53,893 nucleotides of DNA from Candidatus Falkowbacteria bacterium (GTDB taxonomy: Bacteria > Patescibacteriota > Patescibacteriia > JACRDY01), in NCBI GenBank assembly GCA_016218485.1, contig JACRDY010000062.1, forward strand, positions 1-53,893, written 5' to 3'. The notes beneath the pieces were generated by a model that made no database searches, was not told the origin of the DNA, and saw only the letters and a program-made list of their open reading frames with translations. Below, piece by piece: positions 32,229-38,108 of this stretch. The translations under genes were made by a program, and so were the position numbers. How positions within the stretch are numbered: position 1 is the stretch's first letter; every line of letters starts with the position of its first letter.

Positions 32229-33881
32229 TTAATACCCATAGCCAAAACCACCACCATAGGACAGTGCCCCACCGAAAATTGGCAGAGAACGAGTCAACGT
32301 AGAATCAACCTGGTTACCGGAATTATTCTGCCATATCACGCCGCTGATTGTTTTACCCCCGCCCTTGACGTTCATTTGCAGCGTCCCGCTGCTGCATCCC
32401 GTTGTATCACCAAAGATATGAAGAGTTTTACTCATTAACCTTGGGATTACCAGCTGATTATTCCAAGTCCCAAAATTAGTCACATCAAAGCGAGAACCAG
32501 GACGTAGCCACGCCTGCCCTGCCGGGAGTGTCGCGTACGTAGTGGAATCATCACCCTTGATGGTCACCGGACCGGTGCCCGTAATCCGGCAGCTCCCCAC
32601 TACGGTGAATTCTAAATTATCAACCGTGATATCATCATTATCCGCTATGAGGGTTAAGGTCAACACCTCTTTATTAACCCCGGGAGTCGCAGAACCCCGC
32701 GGTGAAGCGCTATTGAGCGACACCCGCAGCACTCCATCCATCAAATAGTAGACCGACGATCCCGCTATACTACCATTACCATCACCGAAGCTGTCAATCG
32801 TAGTAGCCACGACCAAAACCCCGGAATTCACCCCTGTCGCCTCCATCAGGTAACTCCCCGCACCGGGGTTGCCATTCGCGCCCCATTCACTCCCGTCACC
32901 ATCGCTATCTCCCAAACCGATTTCCAGCATACTGCCGTCAATCAGCTGGGTTTTATCAACTAATTCAACTTTGATGTTCAACTTTGGATATGGATAAGTT
33001 GTTGACGCCACAAAAGCATCCGGCGGTAATTGAACTAATACCTTCCCGTTCTGATCCAAGACATACCCAGTGGCTAAACCAATCGGACTAGAATCACGGA
33101 ATAGATAAATCTTCTTTACATTAACGGCAGCGTTCGCTCCCTTGACGGCGATCCATAGTTTGGTTACCGCTACCGGTTCATTCAGTGCGATAAACATATA
33201 ACTCGTAACTGAATGCGTTCTGCCAGCGACCAATTGACCACCAACATCCCCAGCCTTCCGCACTTCCAGCCCCGGAGGTATGGCTGGAGGAGGCAGCGGC
33301 GGAGTGAAGGTCATAGTCGGTCCGATATAATTCTGGTTTTGCAGCGCCCGCATACCAAGTGGCCTAAGAATGACGATCTGGCCCCGAGGATTGATGGATA
33401 GATTCAAGCTTTCCGTCTGCGTCAGCGCGGCCACATCAATCTGAACCTTAAAATTTCTCTGCGTAGTCAAAAAAATATCGTTATCAAAAACGAGCTGGCG
33501 GTTATAGCTGTCAACTACTCCGGCGAAAGACCGCCCATCACTCACCTTGAGGACGGGGTTAGAGATTTTACTGATAGGCAGACTGCCATTGAGCGAGAAA
33601 GCTACCCGGTCAATCACCACACTGGGTGTACCGAGCGGACGAACGGTAAGACCAATCACCGGCGCTTGCGTCACGGCAGTGGTGAATGTCTGGCTGCTCG
33701 GGTCGCTATTTAAAAATACGGACAAACCTTTAACGGGTGAGAGGCCGCCCGCCACCGACATGGCAAAGGCCGAAATAGCGGCCAGCGACGCCGTCACCAC
33801 CGTCACCGCCAATAATACTTTCATGGCCGTGGCGGTCTTGGTGGTGGTCAGCACCGCCGTTGCTGGAGATTGATTAAACAT
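32229..33881 (-). CDS. Surface/secreted beta-rich protein with a Pro linker
   Basis: N-terminal hydrophobic anchor, repeated Ig-like modules, PPLPPPAIPP. Confidence 0.75.
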   Translation of the reverse strand: MFNQSPATAVLTTTKTATAMKVLLAVTVVTASLAAISAFAMSVAGGLSPVKGLSVFLNSDPSSQTFTTAVTQAPVIGLTVRPLGTPSVVIDRVAFSLNGSLPISKISNPVLKVSDGRSFAGVVDSYNRQLVFDNDIFLTTQRNFKVQIDVAALTQTESLNLSINPRGQIVILRPLGMRALQNQNYIGPTMTFTPPLPPPAIPPGLEVRKAGDVGGQLVAGRTHSVTSYMFIALNEPVAVTKLWIAVKGANAAVNVKKIYLFRDSSPIGLATGYVLDQNGKVLVQLPPDAFVASTTYPYPKLNIKVELVDKTQLIDGSMLEIGLGDSDGDGSEWGANGNPGAGSYLMEATGVNSGVLVVATTIDSFGDGNGSIAGSSVYYLMDGVLRVSLNSASPRGSATPGVNKEVLTLTLIADNDDITVDNLEFTVVGSCRITGTGPVTIKGDDSTTYATLPAGQAWLRPGSRFDVTNFGTWNNQLVIPRLMSKTLHIFGDTTGCSSGTLQMNVKGGGKTISGVIWQNNSGNQVDSTLTRSLPIFGGALSYGGGFGYGY

Positions 33882-33923
33882 AGATTTCGCTTGAGTGAAT
33901 TAATTATGAAAAATTAAATACTA

Positions 33924-34859
33924 CTATAACCCGGCCTGCAAACTCTCATCCCACTCTTTAGCCACCAGGAGTACATCATCTTTACCCACCACCGGCGTGG
34001 TTGAGACATTACCCACTTTATCCAGACTGACCTTGGCGGCCGCCTCATCAACCAGATCAATGGCTTTATCGGGAAATGACTTGAGCGTATTTTTCTTGGC
34101 TGATTCCACAGCCTGCGCCAGCGCCTCCTCGCTAATACTGACCCCGTGATGTTCTTCGTACTCTGATTTGATGCCGCGTAAAATTTGCAACGTTTCTTCC
34201 GGGCTCGGTTCATCCACCAAAATCGGCTCAAAGCGACGATCTAGCGTGGTATCGGGTTTGATAAATTTTTGGTACTCTATGATGGTGGTAGCGCCAACCA
34301 TTTGCAGATCGCCCCGCGCCAGCGCCGGCTTGAGGATATCGGAAGCGTCAATCGCCCCGCTGGCTTCTCCAGCCTCGGCAATGATATGCACCTCATCAAC
34401 GAACAAAATGATTTTCCGTTTAGCCGCCACGATTTCATCGGAAATCTTCTTGAGTCGCTGTTCAAACTCACCACGATACTTGGTGCCGGCCAGAATACTA
34501 CTCAAATCGAGTGACAGAACTTTTTTGTTTTTTAAACTCCGCGGCACTCTCCCCTGGACAATGGCTTCCGCCAACCCTTCCACAATGGCGGTTTTACCCA
34601 CGCCGGCTTTGCCGACCAGGACGGGATTATTCTTGGTCCGGCGAGATAGCACCTGGATCACCCGCTCAATCTCCTCACGACGACCAATAATCTTATCCAG
34701 CTGGTTTTGACGGGCTGATTGGGTCAAATCTTTAGCAAACATCATTAATGTCGGCACCGCCAATTCACCGTCTCGGCTTCCCCCCAAACCCCTTTTCCGA
34801 TAATAAAAAAAGGCTATAATAGCCAGGGGAAGGAGAATGACCCAATAATAATTAGACAT
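33924..34859 (-). CDS. Membrane-anchored single-module ClpA/B-type AAA+ ATPase
   Basis: TM, then RRTKNNPVLVGKAGVGKT, AGTKYRGEFE, LFVDEVH, RRFEPI, PDKAIDLVDEA; no second NBD. Confidence 0.88.
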   Translation of the reverse strand: MSNYYWVILLPLAIIAFFYYRKRGLGGSRDGELAVPTLMMFAKDLTQSARQNQLDKIIGRREEIERVIQVLSRRTKNNPVLVGKAGVGKTAIVEGLAEAIVQGRVPRSLKNKKVLSLDLSSILAGTKYRGEFEQRLKKISDEIVAAKRKIILFVDEVHIIAEAGEASGAIDASDILKPALARGDLQMVGATTIIEYQKFIKPDTTLDRRFEPILVDEPSPEETLQILRGIKSEYEEHHGVSISEEALAQAVESAKKNTLKSFPDKAIDLVDEAAAKVSLDKVGNVSTTPVVGKDDVLLVAKEWDESLQAGL

Positions 34860-34977
34860 AGGAGGCAGAGGAACAATACGGCGTATTTGACCGATTCAAA
34901 GAGATACAACTAGTATAGCAAATTTAGCAATAAAATGCAAGAAAAAATTTAATCTGGCAGGCGCTATGATTTGGCTT

Positions 34978-35091
34978 AACCCCACCCTGCCCCTCCCCTT
35001 ACTCCGCAAGGGGAGGAGACGATGTCTACCCGTTTAACGGGAAGCGCTGGTCTCTCCCCCTTATTCATAAGGGGGAGGACAGGAGGGGGTT
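34978..35091. repeat. GC-rich inverted REP doublet (BIME-like)
   Basis: AACCCCACCCTGCCCCTCCCCTT…AAGGGGAGG and CTCCCCCTTA…TAAGGGGGAGGACAGGAGGGGGTT. Confidence 0.75.
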
Positions 35092-35158
35092 TGCAGCCAA
35101 ATAAACACTATGGATAATTTTAATAAAAAAACACCTGCTCAAGAGAGAAAGTGTTTTT

Positions 35159-35231
35159 TGGTGGGTCCGGAGAGAATCGGACTCGTCAACGCGGCCGATA
35201 ATCGGCCCGCTCTCCATTATGAGCTACGGAC
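35159..35231 (-). pseudogene. tRNA-Lys duplicate with the anticodon arm replaced by GGCCGATWATCGGCC
   Basis: 59-nt exact duplication (35126-35184 = 35236-35294, period 110) covering the tRNA 3' end and terminator. Confidence 0.85.
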
Positions 35232-35268
35232 AAACAAAAAACACCTGCTCAAGAGAGAAAGTGTTTTT

Positions 35269-35343
35269 TGGTGGGTCCGGAGAGAATCGGACTCTCGACG
35301 CCGAGCTTAAAAGGCTCGCGCTCTACCACTGAGCTACGGACCC
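35269..35343 (-). tRNA. tRNA-Lys(TTT), CCA encoded
   Basis: GGGTCCG…CGAGC CT TTT AA GCTCG…CGGACCC-A-CCA; atypical T-loop TCCGATT. Confidence 0.9.
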
Positions 35344-35376
35344 ATGATACATCACTCATTAACCTTCTTACTCTTC

Positions 35377-35613
35377 TCAATATAAATCCTGAATAAACTT
35401 TTTACTTTTCTGTCGCTTAACAGAGTACTCAAATTTTATAGCGTCACTTTTATTACTAAAATTTTTAGTATACACCAACTTCCATGGACGCCTATTTTTC
35501 GTGGCGGCTGAACGGCCTTGGTTATGCCGCTTCAACCGATCATTCACATGAGCAGTACTACCAGTATAGTAATTACCATCTTTTAAACTTTCTAGTATGT
35601 AAACCCAGTACAT
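35377..35613 (-). CDS. Stand-alone GIY-YIG nuclease
   Basis: YWVYILES…YYTGST…RLKRHN…TKNRRPWKLVY…E. Confidence 0.92.
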   Translation of the reverse strand: MYWVYILESLKDGNYYTGSTAHVNDRLKRHNQGRSAATKNRRPWKLVYTKNFSNKSDAIKFEYSVKRQKSKKFIQDLY

Positions 35614-35625
35614 ATTTTAAGAGCT

Positions 35626-35674
35626 TCTCGACGCGGCCGATTATCGGCCCGCTCTACCACTGAGCTACGGACCC
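35626..35674 (-). pseudogene. 5' two-thirds of tRNA-Lys with the anticodon arm replaced
   Basis: GGGTCCGTAGCTCAGTGGTAGAGCG-GGCCGATAATCGGCC-GCGTCGAGA, 12 nt before the GIY-YIG ATG. Confidence 0.85.
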
Positions 35675-35678
35675 AAAT

Positions 35679-35819
35679 AATAATTACGAATTACTAACAG
35701 GAGTTACGCACTTCTAAAATTTTCAGCTAATTTTAGAGTAACAATAAAAATTATTAACAGCTAATTTTAGCCAATTTTTATTAAAAGTGCGTAACTCCTG
35801 TTAGTAATTCGTAATTATT
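35679..35819. repeat. Mirror element (AATTACG class) with a MITE at its exact centre
   Basis: Perfect 19-bp IR AATAATTACGAATTACTAA directly flanking the MITE. Confidence 0.88.
35698..35800. mobile_element. 103-bp MITE, copy 2 (inverted)
   Basis: Exact reverse complement of 3141-3243. Confidence 0.9.
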
Positions 35820-35838
35820 CAAACCCTATACTACCCCG

Positions 35839-36906
35839 CTACCCCTTGTTTGTCAATTCTCTAATGATTGCAAGCAATGCCTGTGTCGCGCCCGGTTTGA
35901 GTAATGATTTAATATTTCGGGATAGCTGATCGCGATCTGACGGATTATCCAAGAGCGCCTTAAGCTGCGCCACGAATCCGGCGCTGTCTAATCCTGATTG
36001 TGGTAAATACACCGCCGCGTGACTGTGAGCAAAGTACACAGCATTAGCTTCCTGATGGCTCTGCGGCAGTGGAATCACCACCGTCGGCTTACCCAATGCC
36101 GCCAGTTCACTCAAAAAACCAAATCCCGCGCGCGACACCACCACATCAGCCACCGCCAGAGCATCTGGCATTTCTGCCTGCAAAAATTCATAGGGATGGT
36201 ACCGCTCTACGGGCGCACTGACCACGCTCTTTCCCGCTCCGGTCACGTGGATGATTTGGCAGAATGCCGTCAAGTCAGACAAGCTGTCAGCCACTAACTG
36301 ATTGAGTACTGTTGCCCCGGTGCCTCCACCGATAACCAGAACTGTTGGCAGAGACGAGTCTAAACCGAAACGGTGGAGCGCGGAAGCTCTGCTCCCGGTC
36401 AGAATGCTCTGCCGCACGGGGTTGCCGATCCAGACAGTTTTAATGCGATTGAAATACGGCAGCGATTCGGCCAGCGCCACGGTAATACGCTGGGCAAACG
36501 GCGCCGAGAGTTTATTCGCCAATCCCGGAAGACAATCTTGCTGATGGACGACGACCGGAATCCGCAAGAGCCACGCCGAGAAGACCACCGGTACAGCGAT
36601 GAAACTGCCGGCGCTGACCACCACCTCCGGCTGCAGCCGATGGAGCAGCGCCAGACTCTGGATACAACCGTAGATAATTCTGAACGGATCCAAAAAATTT
36701 TGCAGCGAAAAATACCGGCGCACTTTGCCACCGCTGATCGGCTGAAAAGTAATACCGGCGTCAGTCACGACTTGGCGCTCGGGACCATTGGCGGTGCCTA
36801 TCCAAAAAAGCTCATCAACCGAACTGGCTGATTGCAGCGCTTCACTGACCGCCAGGAGCGGTGTGACTGAACCCATTGTTCCTCCACCGGCAAAGAGTAT
36901 TTTCAT
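35839..36906 (-). CDS. murG: MurG glycosyltransferase
   Basis: GGGTMGSVTP, GNPVR, GGGTGA, SRAG, HQEANA. Confidence 0.94.
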   Translation of the reverse strand: MKILFAGGGTMGSVTPLLAVSEALQSASSVDELFWIGTANGPERQVVTDAGITFQPISGGKVRRYFSLQNFLDPFRIIYGCIQSLALLHRLQPEVVVSAGSFIAVPVVFSAWLLRIPVVVHQQDCLPGLANKLSAPFAQRITVALAESLPYFNRIKTVWIGNPVRQSILTGSRASALHRFGLDSSLPTVLVIGGGTGATVLNQLVADSLSDLTAFCQIIHVTGAGKSVVSAPVERYHPYEFLQAEMPDALAVADVVVSRAGFGFLSELAALGKPTVVIPLPQSHQEANAVYFAHSHAAVYLPQSGLDSAGFVAQLKALLDNPSDRDQLSRNIKSLLKPGATQALLAIIRELTNKG

Positions 36907-36911
36907 ATTTT

Positions 36912-37000
36912 AGATTGTAGATTTCAGATTGCAGATTTCAGATTTGTTATAGTAGTAACGTTACATGCCGACTCAATCTGCAATCTGAAATCTGCAATCT
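36912..37000. repeat. Mirror-microsatellite element, unit AGATT(G/T)C, between ftsW and murG
   Basis: Perfect 19-bp IR 36926-36944 / 36982-37000. Confidence 0.9.
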
Positions 37001-37001
37001 T

Positions 37002-38108
37002 TTATATTTTACTGAACCGGCTGATATTCAGCAAAATACCCACGGCCGCTAAACTAGTCATCAGCGCCGTGCCGCCCGCGCTGATAAAGGGCAACGGGAT
37101 ACCGGTCATCGGCAGGAGCGAGAGCATCCCCATGATATTGATAAATGACTGAAAAATCAACCAGGTGATAATCCCGATCACCAACAGCCGGGAAAACCGA
37201 TCTGGCGTATTTTTGGCGAGCACAAATCCCCGATGAGCGAAAAACAGCAGGAGCCCAATGAACGCCGTGGTAAACAGGAACCCTAACTCCTCACCGATAA
37301 TAGCAAAGATACTGTCGCCCGTCACCTCCGGCAAATAGGAAAATTTCTGACGGCTATGCCCCAAACCGACACCGAAAAATCCGCCGGAGCCGACGGCAAT
37401 CAAGGACTGCCAGATATGGTAAGCAATCCCCTGCGGATCACGTTCAGGGTGCAGGAAGGCGGTAAAGCGATCCATCCGGTAGGGCGCGATTTTTACCAGC
37501 GCCAAAAACCCCGCCAGGCCGACCGCGCCAATAATCCCCAAATGTTTAAGGCTGCCGCCGCCAACAAAATACATAATCACCGCGGTAATCACGATAATAG
37601 ACAGTGTCCCTAAGTCAGGCTGTAAGAGCATCAAGACTGAAATAATCCCGAGTACTATCGCAAAAGGCAAAAAACTGTTATGCAAATCCTGCACCCGCTT
37701 CTCGCCGCGACCATCCAGCCAGGCCGCCAGGTAAATCAGAAACGTCAGTTTAACGATTTCCGCCGGCTGCACGGAAAAACCAAGAATCGTTATCCAGCTC
37801 TTGGCGCTGCCATACTCGGCGCCCAGTCCGGGAATAAAAACAAGCGTCAACAGCGCTATGGAAAAAATTAACAATGGCCAAGCCAGCTGCTTCAGCTTAG
37901 TATAGTGAAAACGGGAAAAAAAGAAAAACAGCGCTACACCAGGCAGTAAGCCGGTAACAATCTGGTGAATGACAAAGTAGTATGGTTGATTAAATTTCTG
38001 ATAGGCAATCGGCGTGCTGGCTGAAGATAAAACAATAAAACCGAAGAGGAGGAGCACCACCACTATGCCCAGAAGCAGGTAATCCGGCTGATGTCCGCGG
38101 TGCTGCAT
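37002..38108 (-). CDS. ftsW: Cell division SEDS protein FtsW
   Basis: QPAEIVK, QPDLGT, GLGHSRQKFSYLPE; located between murD and murG. Confidence 0.92.
   Translation of the reverse strand: MQHRGHQPDYLLLGIVVVLLLFGFIVLSSASTPIAYQKFNQPYYFVIHQIVTGLLPGVALFFFFSRFHYTKLKQLAWPLLIFSIALLTLVFIPGLGAEYGSAKSWITILGFSVQPAEIVKLTFLIYLAAWLDGRGEKRVQDLHNSFLPFAIVLGIISVLMLLQPDLGTLSIIVITAVIMYFVGGGSLKHLGIIGAVGLAGFLALVKIAPYRMDRFTAFLHPERDPQGIAYHIWQSLIAVGSGGFFGVGLGHSRQKFSYLPEVTGDSIFAIIGEELGFLFTTAFIGLLLFFAHRGFVLAKNTPDRFSRLLVIGIITWLIFQSFINIMGMLSLLPMTGIPLPFISAGGTALMTSLAAVGILLNISRFSKI

Follow-up and report, generated by a model that had tools for sequence, protein, structure and literature searches.

Small GIY-YIG Nuclease Genes at tRNA Genes with Hairpin-Bearing tRNA Copies in a Candidatus Falkowbacteria Bacterium and Other Patescibacteria

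Introduction

A short GIY-YIG nuclease gene located among copies of a tRNA-Lys gene, two of which have the anticodon arm replaced by a palindrome, raises the question of what kind of genetic element has produced this arrangement and what part the nuclease has in it. The locus was found in a Candidatus Falkowbacteria bacterium (assembly GCA_016218485.1) on contig JACRDY010000062.1, and the whole analysed stretch of 53,893 nucleotides is referred to below as the window. The genome carrying the locus (981,248 bases) is designated G000, further genomes of the same family are designated G001 to G006, and loci in relatives are given L-numbers.

A possible precedent comes from phages. SegB, a free-standing GIY-YIG enzyme of phages T4 and T6, recognises a conserved motif of the tRNA T arm and homes (PMC2330249), cuts inside tRNA genes, and spreads itself with neighbouring tRNA genes (PMC2330249; PMC13096335). 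Together with homologous recombination, the nuclease gives tandem segmental amplification of tRNA plus segB, and in phage genomes homologues of segB occur preferentially close to tRNAs; the survey covered phage and archaeal-virus proteins only (PMC13096335). A literature search found no report of small GIY-YIG genes beside bacterial tRNA genes, and Supplementary Data 2–3 of PMC13096335 may list relevant homologues.

Organization of the tRNA-Lys Locus

The locus reads on the minus strand in the order tRNA-Lys 5' fragment (psi5'), 78-aa GIY-YIG ORF, intact tRNA-Lys(UUU), and degenerate tRNA-Lys copy (psi3'). This layout had been proposed in the original prediction and was confirmed from the sequence and with ARAGORN, Rfam, and Pfam. 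The features are as follows:

35828–35856, minus strand, promoter-like TTGACA-17-TAGTAT at the murG 3' end (consensus scan, 10/12 matches)
35679–35819, strand not assigned, AT-rich inverted repeat I1 (39-nt arms, 63 nt apart, 97% complementary)
35626–35674, minus strand, psi5', the tRNA-Lys 5' fragment (sequence and repeats D2 and D3)
35377–35613, minus strand, GIY-YIG nuclease ORF of 78 aa (Pfam PF01541, E 1.8e-19)
35269–35343, minus strand, intact tRNA-Lys(UUU) (ARAGORN; Rfam tRNA, 69.1 bits; cloverleaf fold, z −2.16)
35235–35268, minus strand, terminator-like hairpin and T run downstream of the intact tRNA, first copy (inverted repeat I5)
About 35159–35233, minus strand, psi3', the degenerate full-length tRNA-Lys copy (sequence and repeats D1 and D2)
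35126–35159, minus strand, terminator-like hairpin, second copy (within the 59-nt repeat D1; inverted repeat I6)

The intact tRNA-Lys(UUU) gene is the sole one in the genome and begins 33 nt past the stop of the GIY-YIG ORF. In psi5', positions 35674–35650 represent tRNA-Lys nt 1–25, the same as in the intact gene, positions 35649–35635 are the palindrome GGCCGATAATCGGCC replacing the anticodon arm, and positions 35634–35626 (GCGTCGAGA) hold the variable loop and the first part of the T stem. In psi3', GGCCGATTATCGGCC occupies 35193–35207 in place of the anticodon arm, with the flanks GAGCG and GCGT as in psi5', and the T arm and acceptor 3' strand show no differences from the intact tRNA-Lys. 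The 17-nt arm is replaced by GGCCGATWATCGGCC in both pseudo-copies, which confirms the predicted swap for a 15-nt palindrome between these two flanks. Exact direct repeats of 59 nt (35126–35184 and 35236–35294) comprise the T arm, the acceptor 3' strand, and the hairpin with its T run, and an exact repeat of 26 nt is located at 35319–35344 and 35650–35675. The two swapped-arm sequences are best read as what is left of duplicated tRNA-Lys DNA on either side of the ORF and the working tRNA, psi5' upstream and psi3' downstream.

Neither pseudo-copy was called as a tRNA by ARAGORN or by Rfam at E ≤ 1, and only 35272–35343 scored. The downstream one, initially described as a near-full tRNA copy, is a full-length copy of tRNA-Lys, but a degenerate one that folds without a cloverleaf (z −1.41), its acceptor and T stems being weakened. 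The flipped central base of the palindrome does distinguish the two copies in the window; however, this base is polymorphic, since a contig of run X1 over 35319–35672 differs from the window solely at 35642, the palindrome centre. The name terminator, used at first for the hairpins with T runs, was changed to terminator-like: they are visible by eye and recovered as I5 and I6, but a consensus terminator scan called nothing. The 15-mer palindrome has two exact matches in the window, where about 0.16 would be expected by chance even with two mismatches allowed, and in the 981,248-base genome it has no exact match outside the two pseudo-copies. It is therefore not a genome-wide REP, both exact genomic copies being located at the GIY-YIG ORF. 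A single match with one mismatch, on contig C38, was set aside as coding DNA.

The promoter-like motif at the murG 3' end was retrieved by a regular expression in five of the six family genomes (G000, G001, G002, G003, and G004), with no match in G005. This site is likely the tRNA-Lys promoter, now serving the GIY-YIG ORF too. The AT-rich inverted repeat I1 is part of the leader that separates the promoter from psi5'. A shorter AT-rich palindrome was observed in L005 at the position matching this repeat.

Characteristics of the GIY-YIG Protein

The 78-aa protein matched PF01541 with 70.2 bits (cut-off 22.6) over residues 1–71. Its closest solved relatives are the UPF0213 proteins 1zg2 (BH0048; E 2e-13) and 1ywl (EF2693; E 5e-7), followed by SLX1 chains. 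Residues Y5, Y16, G18, R26, H30, and E62 are invariant among 17 aligned homologues, and we take them to be the catalytic Tyr of GIY, the Tyr-x-Gly, and the Arg, His, and Glu of the family motif. Judged by its sequence, the protein is a stand-alone GIY-YIG protein of the Slx1/UPF0213 type consisting of the catalytic domain only. It shares the sequence family, the minimal size, and the conserved Tyr, Tyr-x-Gly, Arg, His, and Glu with UPF0213 and SLX1 proteins, whereas SLX1 requires SLX4 and bears a RING domain. To our knowledge, stand-alone bacterial GIY-YIG proteins (UPF0213/Slx1-like) have no established function. SegB also has a DNA-binding part. In the 78-aa protein, no DNA-binding domain was found besides the nuclease domain, the GIY-YIG profile spanning its whole length, and because a separate DNA-binding domain is absent, it was classified not as a SegB-type enzyme but only as SegB-like in its proposed working.

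No family for the protein was present in NCBIfam or PHROGs, and PADLOC gave no match for it; a tRNA-Phe-linked homologue returned only a weak 'HEase' match in PADLOC (E 0.001). The protein tree was poorly resolved, with 42 of 75 branches left open on 87 columns. The GIY clades track tRNA identity in part (44 label changes vs. 54.9 when shuffled). From 1 to 11 diverged paralogues were counted per ~1-Mb genome, with no match to the window's protein as the query in 4/41.

Genomic Context of GIY-YIG Genes in Relatives

In G000, all five small GIY-YIG genes adjoin a tRNA or tmRNA gene. Among the 104 loci of relatives, a co-oriented tRNA is located within 150 nt in 60 (49 downstream and 11 upstream) and a tmRNA in one, and an opposite-strand tRNA within the same distance in none (0/104). 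RNase P RNA lies immediately downstream of the ORF in L025 and L049, and tmRNA was found 100–330 nt upstream in six loci (L033, L072, L074, L109, L111, and L114). No stable-RNA gene was detected nearby at 35/104 loci. The tRNA-Lys locus of G000 is one case of a layout that recurs at many tRNA genes across Patescibacteria, namely psi5' with a GC hairpin, the ORF, the intact tRNA, and often psi3' with a matching hairpin. A clear psi5', judged by eye from the tRNA-derived blocks, is present in about 27/43 loci, a 3' tRNA fragment downstream of the intact tRNA in 18/49, and an identical non-tRNA 14-mer on both sides in 8/50, compared with 13/2000 mismatched pairs.

The layout of the window's locus was found in G003, G005, L093, and six metagenome contigs. 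The anticodon arm is swapped exactly in the orthologous psi5' of G003 for a 16-nt version of the palindrome, in G005 for the unrelated hairpin TCCCGCGAAGCGGGA, and in L093, which belongs to another class, for the unrelated hairpin CCCGACTTTAGTCGGGG, making three unrelated hairpins for tRNA-Lys in all. At tRNA-Phe, five metagenome contigs have an exact arm swap with TCCCGAAGCATCGGGA and from one to three tandem psi3' copies. In many other loci, the tRNA fragment stops short of the anticodon arm or hairpins occur in the D and T loops, and several cassettes of relatives are positioned exactly at tRNA nt 34–37. The last tRNA-derived block ends 5–16 nt ahead of the ORF ATG. The hairpin loops are UUCG- or GAAG-like, and one hairpin has a compensatory change between families. 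Arm-swapped copies are miscalled in annotation, one of them being read as 'tRNA-Stop(tta)'. Terminal inverted repeats around the ORF and tRNA were considered as a general feature and dropped (repeats of at least 9 nt in 7/47 loci vs. 153/3000 controls); clear ones are present at the tRNA-Ala(tgc) loci L015 and L106.

Mobility, Selection, and Distribution of Pseudo-tRNAs

Within the family, G000, G003, and G005 carry the cassette at the tRNA-Lys site, G001 and G002 have the site empty, and a remnant is left in G004 and G006. In G026, the cassettes at tRNA-Ala and tRNA-Val share 92% identity across 353 nt and a common D-loop junction, an alignment which shows that the cassette moved recently between two tRNA genes. 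The ORFs of this pair have a dN of 0.065 vs. a dS of 0.226, and the ORF, with its catalytic motif intact, is evidently under purifying selection. The palindrome is clearly constrained as well, by the comparison of G000 with G003: although synonymous sites have reached saturation (pS 0.81), 14/14 palindrome arm bases are identical. In G004, which has lost the ORF, the palindrome carries two non-compensating changes. Moreover, a 155-nt contig of run X2 (0 mismatches) joins the ORF end, the leader, and tRNA nt 1–26 to the palindrome and the ORF start; it is a recombinant junction across the 26-nt repeats flanking the ORF.

In one uniform test, pseudo-tRNA fragments were detected at 25/60 GIY-adjacent tRNAs vs. 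20/107 tRNAs that have no GIY gene in their vicinity (odds ratio 3.1, p 0.002, the related genomes being not independent). The inspected fragments of the latter group are hairpin-plugged, and since fragments occur there at all, the hairpins are not strictly tied to the ORF. Recognition or creation of the hairpin by the nuclease, as suggested in the original prediction, is no more than a possibility. Genome G037 has a single GIY gene of a subgroup that is not tRNA-linked, yet it has fragments at 6/47 tRNAs, and one of its pseudo-copies retains the anticodon arm; this genome counts against a strict causal link between nuclease and hairpin. The G000 genome contains 154 GC hairpins, with 1.05/kb in tRNA flanks vs. 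0.146/kb elsewhere, values that are uncorrected for intergenic DNA and from which no enrichment is claimed.

Discussion

The explanation that we favour, with about even confidence, is that the locus is a selfish cassette built on a catalytic-domain-only nuclease of the Slx1/UPF0213 type that uses the tRNA promoter, and that the pseudo-tRNAs are recombination scars, as demonstrated for phage SegB. The cassette would occupy the space that separates the single tRNA-Lys(UUU) gene from its promoter, the ORF would be transcribed from the tRNA promoter, and RNase P cutting at the tRNA 5' end would free the ORF from the tRNA. The nuclease would break tRNA-gene DNA, most likely at stem-loops, because the junctions lie in the D, anticodon, and T loops or coincide exactly with the anticodon-stem base. 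SLX1 is described as a structure-specific endonuclease (PMC1564403), and cutting of this kind fits junctions at such stem-loop landmarks. Recombinational repair, by analogy with phage SegB, might then duplicate segments and copy the cassette into empty alleles. Once stable GC hairpins have replaced or plugged their loops, the pseudo-copies would be retained; these hairpins may break homology with the working tRNA, remove the nuclease target, or both. A tRNA-associated selfish GIY-YIG module with local duplication had been suggested in the original prediction, and this suggestion gains support from the adjacency to tRNA or tmRNA genes (5/5 and 60/104), the occupied, empty, and remnant site states, the two 92%-identical cassettes of G026, the junction contig across the 26-nt repeat, and the SegB precedent. 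Classical homing immunity is left unexplained by this scheme, because the occupied allele keeps an intact tRNA.

A more specific mechanism, which we regard as possible but unlikely, is that a structure-guided Slx1-like nuclease acts on extruded stem-loops of tRNA-gene DNA, cutting at their base or loop, and so lets modules of GC hairpins be swapped or inserted, the cassette spreading with a replacement tRNA copy. If true, this would be a new type of structure-targeted mobile element in ultra-small bacteria, and it would account for the exact arm swaps, for hairpins being present in every pseudo-tRNA loop, and for the same hairpin modules recurring in different classes at tRNAs that are unrelated.

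It is also conceivable, though we rate it as improbable, that hairpins and pseudo-tRNAs arise independently of the nuclease, through REP-like palindromes in duplicated tRNA loops or replication slippage, and that GIY genes accumulate at tRNA loci as safe and strongly transcribed sites. Such an origin would agree with the fragments at 20/107 tRNAs lacking a nearby GIY gene, with nested ORF-free examples on C21 and C59 and in G037, with a 12-nt palindrome, CCGCCGCGGCGG, present in 20 copies genome-wide, with similar stems (TCCGCC...GGCGGA and CCCGCC...GGCGGG) recurrent in many genomes, and with two homologues of Y1 (IS200/RAYT-like) transposases encoded in the genome. However, the window's own palindrome is confined to its two copies at the GIY-YIG ORF, fragments are enriched about three times beside GIY genes, a common hairpin occurs on both sides of the ORF and tRNA far above the control, the hairpins travel with the ORF in G026, and the palindrome of G004 has taken its two non-compensating changes where the ORF is gone. 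RAYT-driven REPs were rejected as a source, since neither of the two Y1 genes has a GC hairpin within 300 nt.

Less probable still is a role of the GIY-YIG proteins as host factors of tRNA metabolism acting on RNA, for example on precursors, with the hairpin pseudo-tRNA leaders serving as processing or stability elements of a joint transcript, like t-elements. The strict co-orientation and tight spacing to the tRNA, the 5–16 nt between the final tRNA-derived block and the ATG, the tetraloop-like UUCG- and GAAG-like loops, and the compensatory hairpin change would all fit a role in RNA. A GIY-YIG domain of the Slx1-like type fused to a TrmH-type tRNA methyltransferase, for which a link with RNA metabolism was suggested, is also reported (PMC1564403). 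Against a host function stand the single tRNA-Lys site that is occupied, empty, or remnant within one family, the paralogue number varying from 1 to 11 per ~1-Mb genome with no match in 4/41, and the recent copy at a different tRNA in G026. In addition, we know of no RNase activity for the GIY-YIG fold.

We consider it very improbable that the nuclease is a tRNA-specific anticodon nuclease toxin and the arm-swapped pseudo-tRNAs are uncleavable decoy RNAs, like the RNA antitoxin of type III toxin–antitoxin systems. In its favour, at tRNA-Lys (three hairpin types) and tRNA-Phe the anticodon arm is precisely removed with the adjoining tRNA parts left in place, psi3' occurs in tandem arrays of 1–3 units, and GIY clades follow tRNA identity in part (44 vs. 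54.9 label changes). The comparison with ToxIN-like systems would concern the tandem psi3' units at tRNA-Phe loci. The tRNA-mimic alternative offered in the original prediction is disfavoured, since psi5' is truncated, the third tRNA-Lys copy (psi3') lacks a tRNA fold, and elsewhere many fragments end before the anticodon arm or have D- and T-loop hairpins that would break the tRNA elbow; moreover, the cassette of G026 went from tRNA-Ala to tRNA-Val almost unchanged, and the window's protein had no match in PADLOC.

An assembly artefact or chance resemblance is scarcely credible: the region does contain 26-nt and 59-nt exact repeats and the full stretch is not covered by any one Logan contig, but contigs of run X1 cover the unique junctions (35126–35265 and 35319–35672; X1 may be the source sample and hence not independent support), the 15-mer is far above chance, and the layout stands in other genera and metagenome contigs (G003, G005, L093, and the six contigs), so misassembly is regarded as already refuted by the orthologous loci.

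Comparison with Known Systems

The favoured selfish cassette shares with SegB the embedding of a GIY-YIG nuclease gene among tRNA genes. It differs in that SegB is a phage protein, whereas the 78-aa catalytic domain is nearest to UPF0213/SLX1 and located in a cellular chromosome; in that the cassette lies between a promoter and a single-copy tRNA; and in its wrapper of hairpin-swapped pseudo-tRNAs, which is absent from the SegB descriptions in the available parts of PMC2330249 and PMC13096335. For bacterial Slx1-like proteins, no link to tRNA genes besides the one TrmH fusion is described in the available part of PMC1564403.

As in integrative elements that target tRNA genes, an insert is flanked by a direct repeat of a part of the tRNA and an intact tRNA is kept; in contrast to them, the 5' part is duplicated here, the insert is ~0.3 kb, and the repeat is interrupted by a hairpin. 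No integrase was found among the ORFs of window positions 33000–38000, and the ~0.45-kb module holds the GIY-YIG ORF only. Group I introns located in bacterial tRNA anticodon loops reportedly carry GIY-YIG homing endonuclease genes, and they resemble the present cassettes in tying a homing-type nuclease gene to this loop, as in the relatives' cassettes at nt 34–37. No intron ribozyme was detected at the locus by Rfam at E ≤ 1, and a second, intact tRNA copy is present instead of splicing. REPtrons (REP plus RAYT) are similar in having a nuclease gene between two GC-rich palindrome copies that differ only by a flipped centre, but here the genome has only two copies of the palindrome and the enzyme is GIY-YIG, not HUH.

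Conclusions

The pattern ties one branch of UPF0213/Slx1-like proteins to genes for tRNA, tmRNA, and RNase P RNA across Patescibacteria. Lying between a promoter and the essential, single-copy tRNA that it serves, the cassette would be transcribed each time the host produces this tRNA, which suggests a selfish strategy. If the cassettes are driven by the nuclease, they would be a main cause of the abundance of pseudo-tRNAs and nested tRNAs, as well as of contig breaks, at the tRNA loci of these genomes, and the SegB principle, in which a GIY-YIG nuclease reshapes tRNA loci by recombination, would extend to cellular genomes.

Structure of the tRNA-Lys locus

The module lies on the minus strand and comprises the following elements, identified from the sequence unless another source is given.

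Elements of the tRNA-Lys locus
35674-35650 (-): nucleotides 1-25 of tRNA-Lys, upstream pseudo-copy
35649-35635 (-): 15-nt palindrome GGCCGATAATCGGCC of the upstream pseudo-copy
35634-35626 (-): nine bases of variable loop and T stem, upstream pseudo-copy
35613-35377 (-): 78-aa GIY-YIG ORF, with its ATG at 35613, twelve bases past the upstream pseudo-copy (ORF listing)
35343-35269 (-): intact tRNA-Lys(ttt), 33 nt past the ORF stop (ARAGORN, Rfam)
directly past the intact tRNA-Lys (-): hairpin with T run, first copy
about 35233-35159 (-): downstream (second) pseudo-copy
35207-35193 (-): GGCCGATTATCGGCC in the downstream pseudo-copy, exactly in place of the 17-nt anticodon arm
past the downstream pseudo-copy (-): hairpin with T run, second copy, identical to the first

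The exact exchange of the 17-nt anticodon arm for a palindrome in both tRNA-Lys copies, as described in the original prediction, was confirmed. A repeat search of the window detected one 59-nt and one 26-nt exact direct repeat at the locus. About 0.16 palindrome matches are expected in the window by chance, even allowing two mismatches; the 981-kb source genome (G000) contains two exact copies, both at this locus, and the sole near-match is within coding DNA. The palindrome is therefore neither a chance feature nor a generic genome-wide repeat. The swapped-arm copies are present, but neither was recognised as a tRNA by ARAGORN or Rfam, and fold prediction gave no cloverleaf for the downstream one, which disfavours the alternative that they serve as decoys or tRNA mimics. 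The ORF protein consists of a GIY-YIG domain alone (Pfam profile match), and its closest solved structures are small UPF0213 proteins, followed by SLX1.

A promoter-like site (TTGACA-17-TAGTAT, 35856-35828) was found by a promoter consensus scan at the murG end and is kept in five of the six family genomes tested, at occupied and empty sites alike; the same scan called no such site on the minus strand between the ORF and tRNA-Lys. The tRNA-Lys(UUU) gene here is the only one in G000. From this arrangement we infer that the ORF and tRNA-Lys share one transcript, from which an RNase P cut at the tRNA 5' end would part the tRNA. Between the promoter-like site and the upstream pseudo-copy is an AT-rich inverted repeat (35679-35819; two 39-nt arms with 97% complementarity), which has only spurious microRNA-like Rfam matches. 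A G+C-rich, strongly self-complementary stretch (34970-35101), with weak hairpin-type Rfam matches only, separates the second terminator-like hairpin from the next gene, a Clp-type AAA+ ATPase judging by motifs.

GIY-YIG genes beside stable-RNA genes

Apart from uvrC, G000 encodes five small GIY-YIG ORFs, all abutting a stable-RNA gene: four immediately precede a same-strand tRNA or tRNA-like gene, and the fifth follows the tmRNA gene at a distance of about 120 nt. The three tRNA-linked loci other than the present one likewise repeat part of the downstream tRNA ahead of the ORF, accompanied by GC-rich hairpins. Among 41 genomes of the class (counting G000), 37 encode such ORFs, each with 1 to 11. 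A co-oriented tRNA was located within 150 nt at 19/29 best loci per genome, at 36/55 matches of seven genomes, and, for other classes of the phylum, at 12/27 loci, with tmRNA at one more. The three sets overlap, and their union of 104 loci has a tRNA downstream in 49, a tRNA upstream in 11, tmRNA in one, and nothing within 150 nt in 43; an opposite-strand tRNA within this distance was found at none (0/104). Positions no more than 150 nt from a tRNA or tmRNA gene make up about 1.2% of G000. A binomial test overstates the association because the counts span related, non-independent genomes. Among the 43 loci, the tRNA-Lys of L006 is interrupted by a stretch of N, L025 (in the relative G016) and L049 (in G003) have an RNase P RNA gene directly downstream of the ORF, and five have tmRNA about 120 to 330 nt upstream.

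Seven loci (G000 contig C50, L033, L072, L074, L109, L111, and L114) have the ORF about 100-330 nt downstream of a tmRNA gene. G000 has a tRNA-Ile with anticodon TAT, as do loci L013 and L024 of relatives. In the weakly supported GIY protein tree, labels clustered by tRNA type (44 changes versus 54.9 with shuffled labels; 0/200 shuffles as low). The tree of 78 proteins also contains a clade (L017, L032, L054, L061, L083, and L084; 95% support) with short branches, one member per genome and mostly no adjacent stable-RNA gene, which may be a resident, non-mobile orthologue; G000, whose genome is 91.55% complete, has no member.

Pseudo-tRNA wrappers and replaced anticodon arms

By manual reading of alignment blocks, the ORF is preceded by a clear 5' fragment of the downstream tRNA at about 27 of the 43 loci that have such a tRNA. 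Breaks or inserted hairpins in these fragments are concentrated at nt 12-23 (D loop) and nt 34-36 (anticodon loop), and the last tRNA-derived block ends 5-16 nt ahead of the ATG. A 3' fragment follows the intact tRNA at 18/49 loci. At 8/50 loci, the two sides share a non-tRNA 14-mer that belongs to a hairpin, compared with 13/2000 mismatched control pairs; the window locus would be a ninth case, excluded by its flipped central base. This recurrence indicates that the swapped-arm copies of the window are two overlapping halves of a pseudo-tRNA around the ORF and the working tRNA.

Exact replacements of the arm occur elsewhere as well. The orthologous fragment of G003 (another genus of the family) and metagenome contig L121 carry GGCCGATTTATCGGCC between the same flanks. 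In family genome G005, where the orthologous ORF is 56% identical, an unrelated hairpin (TCCCGCGAAGCGGGA) occupies this position both in the fragment and in two or more tandem downstream copies. Both halves of the tRNA-Lys wrapper of L093, from another class, have CCCGACTTTAGTCGGGG there. In five metagenome contigs, the anticodon arm of a tRNA-Phe wrapper is replaced by TCCCGAAGCATCGGGA; the ORF, starting in the T loop, is followed by intact tRNA-Phe and 1 to 3 tandem 103-nt pseudo-copies. At C29:1841-1919 (-) of G000, ARAGORN called a 'tRNA-Stop(tta)', a tRNA-Asn-like gene with the anticodon arm remodelled around CCGCCGCGGCGG and a 5-nt loop. It is likely an annotation trap and not a suppressor tRNA; the adjacent GIY protein groups with two tRNA-Asn-linked GIY proteins (95% support). 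At C63:12606-12733 (-) there is a partial copy whose T loop contains a large hairpin, and the normal tRNA-Asn(gtt) is on C13. The 12-nt palindrome CCGCCGCGGCGG has 20 copies in G000, nine of which have a called tRNA or tRNA-like gene no more than about 120 nt away, with one further copy in the C63 pseudo-copy.

None of the fragments reaching past the anticodon at the inspected GIY-linked loci has an uninterrupted anticodon arm; one pseudo-copy in the relative G037, at an ORF-less locus, retains its arm. The tRNA-like genes at nine metagenome loci (L120, L124, L125, L127, L131, L133, L134, L136, and L137) have an anticodon arm of 15-16 nt with a short loop (about 6 nt, CTGAAA type), and no GIY-YIG gene was found near them on these contigs. 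ARAGORN reported six as 'tRNA-???' with a two-base anticodon, L120 as tRNA-Ser, and L125 as tRNA-Phe, and did not call L136.

Site occupancy, recombination and constraint

Within the family, the tRNA-Lys site is occupied in G000, G003, and G005, empty (murG, tRNA, terminator) in G001 and G002, and reduced to an ORF-less remnant in G004 and G006; the G004 palindrome has two non-compensating changes. In G026, a further relative, cassettes beside tRNA-Ala and tRNA-Val are 92% identical over 353 nt (dN 0.065, dS 0.226) with an identical left junction in the D loop. A comparison of G000 with G003 shows saturated synonymous sites (pS 0.81) and spacers that are unalignable by eye, but 14/14 palindrome arm bases are identical, which shows the palindrome to be constrained. 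The first 25 bases of each fragment match the tRNA of its own genome, so fragment and tRNA evolve in concert.

Contigs assembled from public sequencing runs were also compared. Over 354 bases, a contig of X1 (possibly the source sample) matches the window everywhere except at 35642, the palindrome centre. A 155-nt X2 contig (depth 3.2, no mismatch) joins the ORF end, leader, and tRNA nucleotides 1-26 to the palindrome and ORF start, the junction expected of a circle or tandem 331-bp unit from exchange between the 26-nt repeats. In a contig of X3, a run from another study, two palindrome-bearing copies are in tandem. In relatives, GIY-YIG ORFs are often no more than a few hundred bases away from the end of a contig (e.g., L016, L029, L059, L098, and L104), and two G026 contigs overlap within the cassette by 110 identical bases; the cassettes seem to break assemblies.

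Fragments and hairpins without the nuclease gene

Fragments, scored as an exact same-strand 15-mer within 600 nt and outside called tRNAs, were detected at 25/60 GIY-adjacent tRNAs versus 20/107 others (odds ratio 3.1, p 0.002, relatedness ignored). The link between nuclease and hairpin is weakened by G037, whose single GIY gene belongs to a subgroup not linked to tRNAs, yet which has fragments at 6/47 tRNAs and GC hairpins in all four fragment-bearing loci read. In G000 itself (C21:2000-2450 and C59:4950-6200), intact tRNAs lie nested inside their own decayed copies, with the 5' part on one side, the 3' part on the other and no ORF. These ORF-less fragments could be remnants of lost cassettes, like those of G004 and G006, or may have arisen by an independent process. 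The nested tRNAs (Arg-ccg, Arg-cct, Gly-tcc, Pro-tgg, and Ile-gat) have complementary GC-rich leader and trailer arms, and the outer copy of tRNA-Gly is split right after the anticodon. Hairpin stems of the TCCGCC...GGCGGA type are widely recurrent, and in one hairpin the families differ by a compensatory change, which would fit selection on structure in RNA or single-stranded DNA. G000 also has two IS200/RAYT-like ORFs of about 244 aa (Pfam Y1_Tnp; C20:7786-8517 and C27:45167-45901), with no GC hairpin within 300 nt of either.

Comparison with known systems and proposed mechanism

A literature search on small GIY-YIG genes beside bacterial tRNA genes found no published account of this layout. 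The nearest tested system is phage SegB, described as a GIY-YIG homing endonuclease encoded within a tRNA cluster, with a site that includes a conserved T-arm motif (PMC2330249). Its nuclease activity and homologous recombination are reported to yield tandem amplifications of tRNA plus segB, and segB homologues to be enriched near tRNAs in phage genomes (PMC13096335). In contrast to SegB, the cassettes are in cellular chromosomes, their enzyme belongs to the minimal Slx1/UPF0213 branch without a DNA-binding domain, and the gene lies between promoter and tRNA, wrapped by pseudo-tRNAs with hairpin-swapped or hairpin-plugged arms. Homing immunity is not accounted for, because the occupied allele retains an intact tRNA.

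The original prediction of a selfish tRNA-targeting GIY-YIG module is partly supported by the recurring layout, the occupied, empty and remnant states of the site, the G026 cassette pair, and the X2 junction. The junctions are located in the D, anticodon or T loop or precisely at the anticodon-stem base, and SLX1 is described as a structure-specific nuclease (PMC1564403). Taken together, these positions and this specificity lead us to favour a mechanism in which the nuclease would cut tRNA-gene DNA at stem-loops and recombinational repair would follow.
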